From the NCBI RefSeq assembly GCF_003018255.1, contig NZ_CP027441.1: a DNA stretch of 64,000 bases. The stretch is one strand, 5' to 3'. This document shows, in pieces, positions 56,598 to 57,621 of the stretch (positions are counted from its first letter, which is position 1; every line of letters starts with the position of its first letter). Both the position numbers and the translations under genes were made by a program. The notes under the pieces are model-generated. The model was not told where the DNA came from, did no database searches, and saw only the letters and a program-made list of their open reading frames with translations. This DNA is from Escherichia coli. GTDB lineage: Bacteria; Pseudomonadota; Gammaproteobacteria; Enterobacterales; Enterobacteriaceae.

Positions 56598-56722
56598 TAA
56601 CACCTGTATGGCTGATTTTAATAACAACCTTAATAACAACCTTTACGCGATTATTAATCTCCTCCGCTCACCATAGTAAGCGGAGGATTCAGGATTTCAA
56701 TCCATCATCAGAGGTACAATAA

Positions 56723-57025
56723 ATGTGTATTAGTAGCCCGGAAACAAACTCATGGTCTGTTATTTATCGTAAAAATTCCGGAGAAGATATCAATATCACT
56801 TCCCTGACGTTTAAAAATAGTCTTCTGGCAGCCCGGATACTGATGGTGCCCAAAAACTATATGATATGCATACTCAGAAACGGGGAGAGCCTGCCAGACA
56901 TGCTGATTAATTTTGCCCTTATTAACATCACAGACAGAAAGAACGAGGGTACCAATACCATTGATGGTAACTGGCAGGCCGATGAAGGACGCCGTTACCG
57001 GGATAATGTAAGAATCTATTTTTGA
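56723..57025 (+). CDS. hypothetical protein (100 aa)
   Basis: Low-GC ORF between trbC and nikB; no motif. Confidence 0.3.
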   Translation: MCISSPETNSWSVIYRKNSGEDINITSLTFKNSLLAARILMVPKNYMICILRNGESLPDMLINFALINITDRKNEGTNTIDGNWQADEGRRYRDNVRIYF

Positions 57026-57122
57026 GTATGTCAACATAACCTGAGGCAAAGTACCTCAGGTTCCAGTGTAGTAATCAGCCAACCTGACAGTCTTCTGTTA
57101 GCCCTACAGATATGTCGTGGAG

Positions 57123-57518
57123 CTAACCGCGCATGTCAAAGCCGGATTTTTGAAAATCTCTATAAACTTCCGGATTGTTGAAGGCCGGGAATTTAGCTTT
57201 ATGGGCTGCTGACTTTATCGCTTCGCAATAGGCTTTATCGCCATTACTGGTTGATATTTTTAACGCCGTGCCATCCCGGGAGAATTCCATATGCAACCTG
57301 CATTTTTTCCTTTTCCATTTTTGCGGATCATCAAGTTTAGCATTAATTGCATCCCTGATTCCCCGTGCCTGCTCCCCCCATTCATCCTGATCATCCCAAC
57401 GTCCTGAACTGCAACTACCCAGGGCTGTAGTTTTATGGCAATTTGAAGGATGTAATGGCGCACATCCCGCCACAAAGCTGACTAAAATAGCCAGCATAAC
57501 GATTTTCTTTACCCCCAT
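57123..57518 (-). CDS. hypothetical lipoprotein (131 aa)
   Basis: From MGVKKIVMLAILVSFVAGC (lipobox VAGC); Lys/Asp-rich mature part with four Cys. Confidence 0.5.
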   Translation of the reverse strand: MGVKKIVMLAILVSFVAGCAPLHPSNCHKTTALGSCSSGRWDDQDEWGEQARGIRDAINAKLDDPQKWKRKKCRLHMEFSRDGTALKISTSNGDKAYCEAIKSAAHKAKFPAFNNPEVYRDFQKSGFDMRG

Positions 57519-57621
57519 ATATTGCTCCTCAATCCATATAGATCTCAGTACCATAGCTCTGTCAGAGCAAAGAAAATCTTAACTAATACAAGTTAAGATT
57601 TTTAATATCCACTCCTCATCC

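Follow-up and report, generated by a model that had tools for sequence, protein, structure and literature searches.

What occupies the DNA between the convergent genes trbC and nikB of an Escherichia coli plasmid with an I-complex transfer region, and is a Hok-type killer gene part of it? The question concerns positions 56598-57621 of a 64,000-nucleotide stretch of contig NZ_CP027441.1, which we call the window. An earlier note on this DNA had stated that R64-type plasmids carry the post-segregational killing locus pnd near this site. It had found no obvious gene of this type there and had suggested that plasmid stabilization may rely on other determinants, such as a toxin-like locus at 51.3 kb. 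Our analysis indicates that the interval is a variable cargo slot whose one intact gene would encode a lipoprotein mimicking part of the envelope protein TolA, and that the toxin loci lie elsewhere in the window. We consider this overall explanation likely, and we are highly confident in the identity and anatomy of the interval as a cargo slot. All features discussed here are already annotated in hundreds of identical records, where they appear as TrbC, hypothetical protein, TolA C-terminal domain-containing protein, relaxase, Hok/Gef, and DqlB.

A 1.4-kb segment that includes the interval is 100% identical to large plasmids of Shiga toxin-producing E. coli (STEC) that are negative for the locus of enterocyte effacement, including pO104_H21 (NZ_CP023542) and several other plasmids of 160-175 kb, and 99.8% identical to pO113. 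Such plasmids have an IncFIB replicon and an I-complex transfer region that is typed as IncK2/Z or I-gamma and as MPF_I/MOBP. These matches identify the window as a pO113/pO104_H21-type STEC plasmid with an IncK2/Z-like I-complex transfer region. In the window and its relatives, trbA, trbB, and trbC run rightward and nikB and nikA run leftward. The GC content of 56598-57621 is 0.37-0.46, whereas trbC and nikB have values of 0.54-0.60 in their bodies. The two borders of the interval are as follows.

54294-56597, + strand: trbC (767 aa), left border; open reading frame (ORF) annotated as TrbC in identical plasmids
57622-60333, - strand: nikB relaxase gene (903 aa), right border; ORF with RefSeq annotation in identical plasmids

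Toxin loci outside the trbC-nikB interval

We searched the interval for Hok-family peptides by using tblastn in all six frames (E<=100, word size 2). The queries were PndA taken from the R64 record, DqlB, and sequences for Hok, SrnB, PndA of R483, Gef, and RelF. No Hok-family peptide was found on either strand of 56598-57621. The best matches within the interval cover 5-18 residues at E values of ~7 or worse. Among these, the best PndA match (57520-57488, E ~7) falls inside the hydrophobic signal peptide of the lipoprotein described below, and three scraps of DqlB similarity have E values of 24-48. Likewise, Pfam detected no HOK_GEF domain (PF01848) in any of the small ORFs of the interval. 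An Rfam search of 56400-57800 (E<=10) recovered nothing resembling a Sok/PndB-type antisense RNA, only three unrelated sub-threshold matches, and blastn found no similarity between the interval and the pnd region of R64. The same tools were positive elsewhere in the window, where the ORF at 40937-41089 matches HOK_GEF (E 1.2e-11) and RF01794 scores 119.7 bits at 41087-41244. The tblastn, Pfam, Rfam, and blastn searches thus agree with the earlier observation that the interval has no Hok-like ORF. A degraded or frameshifted hok gene was also considered for the interval and is ruled out by these four negative results.

The stated position of pnd in R64-type plasmids proved to be mistaken. RefSeq annotation of R64 (NC_005014) places nikB at 67391-70090 and trbC at 70127-72418, which leaves 36 bp between them. 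This gap consists of a single GC-rich hairpin followed by a T-run, and is a bidirectional terminator shared by both genes. The Hok/Gef gene pndA of R64 resides at 75000-75152, 292 bp upstream of trbA. The DinQ-like toxin gene dqlB is another 0.8 kb out from pndA, and excA is found beyond it. This gene order assigns pnd to the excA-trbA segment, which flanks the trb operon on the side away from nikB. A 1996 paper by Furuya and Komano, which PMC10286972 cites, assigns pnd to the trbABC region of R64 in its title.

The implied claim that the plasmid lacks a Hok-type system is also contradicted, given that the window carries a pnd cassette at ~40905-41260 in addition to the locus at 51.3 kb.

40905-41260, - strand: pnd cassette comprising pndA (40937-41089) and, overlapping it, a pndC-type frame (40944-41228)
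51316-51767: predicted dqlB locus, with dqlB at 51316-51408 (- strand), which encodes a 31-aa DinQ-like peptide, and an AgrB-family antisense RNA match at 51679-51767 (+ strand)

The 50-aa ORF at 40937-41089 on the - strand is 90% identical to R64 PndA (tblastn, E 1e-28). Similarity to the R64 cassette extends over ~350 nt at an estimated ~90% identity (mean column identity 90%) and includes the GC hairpin at the 3' end. The hallmarks of Hok/Gef-Sok systems (a toxin ORF, a mok/pndC-type frame, a leader, and a 3' hairpin) are all found at ~41 kb and are collinear with R64. Based on these features, we predict that the locus is a complete Hok/Sok-family pnd cassette. The Rfam sok match at 41087-41244 is on the - strand, the same strand as pndA, and lies directly upstream of it; the model covers the leader region of the toxin mRNA and not an RNA of the opposite strand. 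The PndB antisense RNA should be encoded within 41087-41244 on the + strand.

This cassette is orthologous to the type I toxin-antitoxin locus pnd of R64 and R483, and it occupies ~40.9-41.25 kb in the same excA-trbA segment as in R64. However, ~10 kb of accessory genes, which include a phosphoethanolamine transferase gene and epeA, separate pnd from trbA in the window. The dqlB locus lies in this segment as well, as it does in R64, and the accessory genes that spread pnd and dqlB apart relative to R64 comprise those for a TnsA-N-domain protein, the phosphoethanolamine transferase, epeA, and others. The first of these is a 528-aa ORF at 39213-40799 (+ strand), between excA and pnd, for which identical plasmids give the annotation TnsA endonuclease N-terminal domain protein. 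pMS7163B and some pO113-type plasmids have this ORF, and pO104_H21 lacks it at that spot. The second, a 518-aa ORF at 41758-43314 (- strand) beside pnd, is a plasmid-borne phosphoethanolamine transferase in identical plasmids. This enzyme class includes MCR and EptA, and the records inspected carry no resistance-gene flag.

At 51.3 kb, the encoded peptide is 87% identical to R64 DqlB (tblastn), and dqlB is annotated in relatives. RF02891 matches at 51679-51767 with 51.7 bits (gathering threshold 40), on the opposite strand and upstream of dqlB, and trbA (51918-53198) follows just after this locus. The region from 51.3 to 51.8 kb is therefore predicted to hold a type I toxin locus of the dqlB/agrB-like kind. 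The proposal that stabilization involves the toxin-like locus at 51.3 kb stands insofar as a dqlB locus exists there, but a Hok-type pnd locus is present at 41 kb as well.

One could still argue that the interval once held a pnd or other Hok locus that has since been lost or degraded, which would leave the plasmid without Hok-type post-segregational killing. This idea derives solely from the statement in the earlier note, and we consider it exceedingly improbable. It is refuted by the layout of R64 (a 36-bp terminator at this site, with pndA upstream of trbA), by the lack of any protein, RNA, or DNA trace of pnd in the interval, and by the intact cassette at 40.9-41.25 kb. The absence of hok between trbC and nikB is the normal state of the backbone and is an ordinary observation. 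The outcome of this part of the analysis is a corrected map position: the STEC plasmid has retained both type I toxin loci that are usual for the I-complex, pnd and dqlB, which is of little further consequence.

The content of the space between trbC and nikB differs widely among related plasmids. It amounts to 36 bp in R64 and to 219 bp without a gene in the IncK2/Z plasmid pCMY166, whereas pMS7163B carries a sul2-strAB-dfrA14 island there and another plasmid has Tn3/aph(6)-Id. In pO157, the lipoprotein gene alone remains and is joined to a truncated nikB. We conclude from these comparisons that the trbC and nikB genes of the I-complex backbone meet at a terminator that they share (36 bp in R64, 219 bp in pCMY166) and that this never was the pnd site. 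In one sublineage (IncK2/Z, B/O, pO113-type, and the pO157 remnant), the same spot became a cargo slot. In the window, this slot holds a 3'-truncated pilI-like gene, an ireA-type tail with its terminator, and one intact lipoprotein gene under purifying selection.

The island of pMS7163B (60914-65583 of its record) has the order sul2-strA-dfrA14-strB-IS91 and has cost the TolA-domain lipoprotein gene its last 26 codons. In a published study of pMS7163B by transposon-directed insertion site sequencing (TraDIS), neo_2 insertions within this resistance island were scored as conjugation defective, with a log2 fold change (log2FC) of -3.26.

A lipoprotein with a predicted TolA domain III fold

The reverse-strand gene for a 131-aa lipoprotein that had been noted in the interval is present and intact.

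57123-57518, - strand: lipoprotein gene (131 aa), with lipobox VAGC (Cys19, Ala at +2), a Cys-rich linker, and a predicted TolA domain III fold

The extent of its product varies among annotations. The PGAP/RefSeq call is 143 aa with a start at 57554, and other records list 124-165 aa. A Shine-Dalgarno sequence, GAGGAG, is located at 57525-57530, 6 nt upstream of the start at 57518. The family alignment is invariant from the lipobox cysteine onward and not before it, and the N-terminal extension is not conserved. Furthermore, in the prophage copy a stop codon interrupts the upstream extension, and the gene starts with GTG at the equivalent of 57518. Because of the Shine-Dalgarno sequence, the conservation pattern, and the stop and GTG codons of the prophage copy, we prefer the 131-aa start at 57518 to the 143-aa version of RefSeq. 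A canonical lipobox closes the signal peptide, MGVKKIVMLAILVSFVAGC, and Cys19 is retained in all full-length relatives inspected. Under the Lol sorting rule, alanine at position +2 directs a lipoprotein to the outer membrane. The Ala at +2 of this protein thus predicts that it is anchored in the outer membrane.

The mature protein resembles TolA's C-terminal domain. Pfam PF06519 (TolA C-terminal) matches residues 56-137 of the 143-aa form at an E value of 5e-14, and its 52.7 bits exceed the cut-off of 25. A phmmer search matched structures of E. coli TolA domain III (TolAIII) with an E value of 3e-8 and an ungapped alignment of 80 residues at ~32% identity (TolA 340-419). An AlphaFold2 model has a predicted local distance difference test (pLDDT) score of ~90 over the domain. 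With Foldseek, this model superposes on 3qdr, 3qdp, and 2x9a with root mean square deviations of 1.1-1.3 A over 83-86 residues; these TolAIII structures are complexes with colicin A, If1-g3p, and M13-g3p. The cysteines that form the TolA disulfide C363-C388 are both invariant in an alignment of 16 sequences that includes TolA. The model and these matches indicate that the lipoprotein adopts the TolA domain III fold, an alpha/beta arrangement with a three-stranded sheet.

Compared to E. coli TolA domain III (PDB 1S62, 3QDP/3QDR, 2X9A, and 1TOL), the lipoprotein shares the fold, the disulfide pair, and the C-terminal strand motif VY..F....D. However, it lacks the inner-membrane anchor (domain I) and the helical domain II of TolA and has a lipoprotein signal instead. 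It matches the TolA equivalog model only at positions 274-382 of 387, with 53 bits against a cut-off of 213. Because the anchor and domain II are missing and the equivalog score is below the cut-off, the lipoprotein is not a TolA orthologue and cannot be energized by TolQR.

Between the lipid anchor and the domain is a 30-residue linker with two more cysteines, CxPLHPSxCHKTTAxGSCSSGRWDDQDEWG, which TolA lacks and which does not vary within the close family. Conservation across the family is highest at the C terminus, where 20 of 24 residues are invariant. This segment aligns with the TolA strand that holds D418 and K420, and the equivalent residues in the lipoprotein are D and R.

Homology to relatives is limited to the coding sequence plus ~30 bp upstream (57120-57550). 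Identity is 88% to copies in lambdoid prophages and 82% to chromosomal copies in Citrobacter and Enterobacter. In comparisons with the prophage, Citrobacter, and Enterobacter copies, the ratio of nonsynonymous to synonymous substitution rates (dN/dS) is 0.08-0.10 over the mature part. The lipoprotein gene is real and is under strong purifying selection. A consensus scan and inspection by eye for a promoter of its own between nikB and the start codon revealed none.

It might be supposed that the gene is a functionless hitch-hiker beside nikB, given that R64 and some IncK2/Z plasmids do not have it, that the copy of pMS7163B carries a natural truncation at no obvious cost, and that its neighbors in the slot are gene fragments. 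The low dN/dS ratios across plasmid, prophage, and chromosomal copies argue against this view, as do the invariant lipobox, disulfide cysteines, and C terminus. In addition, the gene is intact at >=99% identity in ~590 plasmid records and occurs in 1274 of 5426 complete E. coli genomes. We therefore regard a functionless passenger as improbable.

The occurrences in those 1274 genomes divide into 548 plasmid places (at least 99% identity) and 825 chromosomal places (~88% identity). The lipoprotein is present in all pO157 records inspected. Both the chromosomal copy that we inspected and the copy of phage mEp460_ev081 are the second of two different TolAIII lipoprotein genes located between the Q antiterminator gene and the holin gene. 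A profile scan of viral contigs, built from the alignment of the closer family, recovered the same pair directly upstream of the holin gene in 34 of 52 IMG/VR loci. In the Qin-like prophage of E. coli ECONIH1 and in mEp460_ev081, this tandem pair lies between Q (with tRNA genes) and the holin gene, which is the stx slot of Stx phages.

More broadly, 111 relatives were found among 1.8 billion representatives. Most are 120-150 aa long, and a lipobox is present in all that were inspected. A Klebsiella bacteriocin plasmid of the ColRNAI type (NZ_CP028788.2, 10,060 bp) encodes a 123-aa TolAIII lipoprotein in a locus at 5902-6635. The gene overlaps one for a secreted protein of 121 aa that has a TonB C-terminal domain, and the locus adjoins a tRNase-type klebicin-immunity-lysis operon. 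Judging by their predicted domains, the two proteins are putative mimics, encoded next to each other, of the two periplasmic import hubs. Klebsiella conjugative plasmids of the MPF_I type also carry a TolAIII lipoprotein gene, next to the gene for a thioredoxin-fold protein. Distant TolAIII genes are carried by ~690 plasmid records, mostly from Klebsiella. On metagenome contig SRR31861038_8207, a 61%-identical relative is located downstream of genes for an HlyD-family protein and an ATP-binding cassette exporter with a C39 peptidase domain, and of a 60-aa ORF. This cluster looks like one for microcin or bacteriocin export.

The other TolAIII lipoproteins of mobile elements (from Klebsiella plasmids and the upstream paralogue in prophages) share the design of lipobox, linker, and TolA domain III in 123-144 aa. 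They differ from the window protein in having only 22-26% identity to it, C termini that are nearer to those of genuine TolA (…FKNAPLDF[KR][PL]), and no linker of the kind that characterizes the window subfamily.

Gene fragments and hairpins around the lipoprotein gene

The remainder of the interval contains a 100-aa ORF of low GC content, whose presence had been described correctly, and several repeats and hairpins.

56618-56641, + strand: 12-bp tandem duplication, two copies of TTAATAACAACC, in the spacer after trbC, from a repeat search
56660-56687, + strand: GC-rich hairpin formed by an inverted repeat, probable trbC terminator (-17.4 kcal/mol, z -3.8)
56723-57025, + strand: 100-aa ORF annotated as 'hypothetical protein', an in-frame chimera of two fragments
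56723-56889, + strand: 5' part (56 codons) of a pilI-like gene, from comparison with IncK2/Z relatives
56890-57078, + strand: remnant of the 3' end of a TonB-dependent receptor gene of the ireA type (its final 44 codons, with the stop at 57023-57025) and DNA downstream of it
57038-57063, no strand assigned: hairpin at which the chimeric ORF and the lipoprotein gene converge (+ strand -15.9 kcal/mol, - strand -16.6 kcal/mol; z about -3.8 to -3.9)
57573-57602, no strand assigned: AT-rich perfect inverted repeat with 12-bp arms and a loop of 6 nt, in the spacer from the nikB stop to the lipoprotein start (+ strand z -6.1)

The 100-aa ORF does not constitute a gene by itself. The window lacks 281 bp that IncK2/Z relatives have between the pilI-like and ireA-type fragments. 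In IncK2/Z plasmids such as pMRY16-002_3, an intact 97-aa ORF matches Pfam PilI (PF10623) with 41.3 bits (E 1.2e-10), whereas the 100-aa ORF of the window scores 13.2 bits and is below the cut-off of 25. A BLASTP comparison with R64 PilI gave no match.

The encoded tail aligns to positions 637-682 of 682 of the NCBIfam IreA model (E 2e-14). At the nucleotide level, ~56890-57078 is 85% identical to the 3' end of the chromosomal ireA gene of CFT073, and this similarity includes 53 bp past the stop codon. In the relatives without the deletion, the final 71 residues share 66% identity with IreA. The plug domain and the complete 22-strand barrel of IreA are missing, and this segment is a 3' pseudogene fragment. 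Comparison with these relatives points to a 281-bp deletion that fused the pilI-like and ireA-type fragments in frame and thereby produced the 100-aa ORF.

Fusion could in principle have made a genuine new gene, and the ORF is indeed uninterrupted, begins with ATG, and is annotated in pO113-type plasmids as hypothetical protein WP_000334995.1. Even so, we judge this to be very improbable. The product would combine half of a PilI-family protein with the last approximately two strands of a 22-strand barrel, and neither half can fold as its parent does. The PilI score of 13 falls short of the 25-bit cut-off, the junction is a lineage-specific 281-bp deletion, and the matching DNA lies among gene fragments. 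The 'hypothetical protein' of pO113-type plasmids could thus be re-annotated as a deletion chimera.

We also considered whether the tolA-like and ireA sequences were captured together from one chromosome. Chromosomal homologues of the lipoprotein gene in Citrobacter and Enterobacter stand alone in unrelated contexts, and in CFT073 ireA is followed by insertion sequence elements. Because of these arrangements, and because homology covers only the coding sequence and ~30 bp upstream, joint capture and a common origin receive no support.

Three hairpins fold better than shuffled sequences, which is the comparison expressed by the z-scores above, and this agrees with the earlier mention of flanking hairpins: 56660-56687, 57038-57063 (z -3.9), and 57573-57602. 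The first is probably the trbC terminator; a consensus terminator scan called no terminator at 56660-56687. The second falls inside the ireA-derived block that is homologous to CFT073, and is probably the old ireA terminator, which would now be usable from both sides. The repeat at 57573-57602 could be a weak nikAB terminator or attenuator, or an operator. The duplicated unit TTAATAACAACC is present in a single copy in the relative pJX1-2. In addition, a 15-nt inverted repeat is shared by the 3' coding ends of trbC (56554-56568) and nikB (57627-57641), with 87% complementarity and a distance of 1058 nt. This repeat may be a vestige of abutting genes on a shared terminator, or may be due to chance.

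Possible roles of the TolA-domain lipoprotein

If exported, lipidated at Cys19, and sorted through its Ala at +2 to the inner face of the outer membrane, the lipoprotein would display a free TolA domain III. Without the anchor and domain II, this domain would not transduce energy. A tethered TolA domain III that has no connection to the motor could therefore only compete for TolA ligands. The protein may thus serve as a TolA mimic or decoy for ligands whose docking on the C-terminal strand occurs by beta-strand addition. Candidate ligands would be the domains by which Tol-dependent bacteriocins translocate, the g3p-N1 domain that filamentous phages (I-pilus phages such as If1 among them) carry, and perhaps the N terminus of TolB.

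Earlier studies of TolA provide a rationale for such competition. Overproduction of TolAIII in the periplasm reportedly (Levengood-Freyhan et al., in 1993) has the same effect as periplasmic pIII-N1. Periplasmic pIII-N1 acts in the reverse direction: it sequesters TolA itself, which makes cells resistant to colicin A and lowers phage uptake by 4 logs (PMC10424213). TolB, colicin N, and g3p-N1 all dock on the C-terminal strand of TolA by beta-strand addition, and a proline substitution at D418 or K420 abolishes the binding of TolB, ColN, and g3p (PMC4339652). We tentatively propose that the lipoprotein is a protective decoy against Tol-dependent bacteriocins and against filamentous phages, such as If1, that use the plasmid's own thin pilus, which its sequence features make a reasonable possibility. 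The recurrence of TolAIII lipoproteins on mobile elements, for example beside a TonB C-terminal-domain protein, was counted in favor of a decoy.

Several observations weigh against this proposal. Our literature search on TolA-domain lipoproteins of plasmids and phages found no study or experiment. PHROG 5772, which matches the lipoprotein over its full length, is a family of unassigned function, and PADLOC gave no match for the lipoprotein, that is, no membership in a known defense system. The chromosomal copies of Enterobacter and Citrobacter stand alone in unrelated contexts. The consensus scan and inspection of 57621-57519 revealed no sigma-70 promoter of the lipoprotein gene. TolA residues K368, K379, and K396, which make cation-pi contacts with colicin A (PMC3365938), correspond to E, S, and H in the lipoprotein. 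Because these three contact lysines are replaced, a decoy for colicin A in particular is not supported. Finally, the gene of lambdoid prophages sits in the late slot between Q and the holin gene, which fits a role in lysis at least as well as protection of the lysogen.

This last point leads to a different view, in which the TolAIII lipoprotein is an envelope modulator that titrates TolB (or Pal) away from TolA and transiently loosens the Tol-Pal tether. When the element is active, this would aid disruption or vesiculation of the outer membrane in phage lysis and possibly in mating. A late-transcript position downstream of Q and upstream of the holin gene (34 of 52 IMG/VR loci and E. coli Qin-like prophages) would suit such a function. 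So would the arrangement of the plasmid gene, which follows nikB on the same strand and has no recognizable promoter of its own. Moreover, blocking the TolA-TolB strand addition results in a full tol phenotype with a destabilized outer membrane (PMC4339652). However, the interaction between TolA and TolB is weak (40 uM, PMC4339652), and titration would need high expression. Stand-alone chromosomal copies exist, and pO157 keeps an intact gene even though its transfer system is gone.

Mating provides a further argument. The conjugation-proficient reference plasmid pMS7163B (PMC10286972) conjugates normally although its gene lacks the last 26 codons, and TraDIS insertions in the remnant are neutral, with a log2FC of +0.39 (PMC10286972). 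Because this copy is truncated yet the plasmid conjugates, the lipoprotein gene is dispensable for surface conjugation. The TraDIS data of pMS7163B were also considered as a functional test of the lipoprotein, and were rejected for this purpose because the gene there is already without its last 26 codons. Altogether, we find a role as envelope modulator rather unlikely.

Other mobile elements encode lipoproteins that act at the envelope, among them Llp of phage T5, Cor of lambdoid phages, and TraT of plasmids. If the decoy proposal is correct, the window protein would resemble these in being a small accessory lipoprotein of the outer-membrane type that is proposed to block the entry of competitors at a component of their uptake route. 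Llp, Cor, and TraT bind an outer-membrane receptor (FhuA or OmpA), whereas the window lipoprotein would imitate the periplasmic hub TolA. The proposal could be extended to a class: TolAIII lipoproteins of the outer membrane might represent an unrecognized type of mobile-element decoy against invaders that exploit the Tol (or Ton) import hubs, namely group A bacteriocins and pilus-dependent filamentous phages. The window gene would be one member of this class, and on one Klebsiella bacteriocin plasmid the lipoprotein would have a secreted TonB C-terminal domain as its partner. We regard this broader idea as doubtful. If it is true, carriage of such a decoy by an I-complex plasmid would offset the cost of the thin pilus used by phages of the If1/PR64FS type.

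The TolA-domain lipoprotein family is widespread, in about one quarter of complete E. coli genomes and in lambdoid prophages, and has no assigned function. If its members are decoys for Tol-dependent colicins or filamentous phages, then their carriage by plasmids and prophages would shape competition in the gut.

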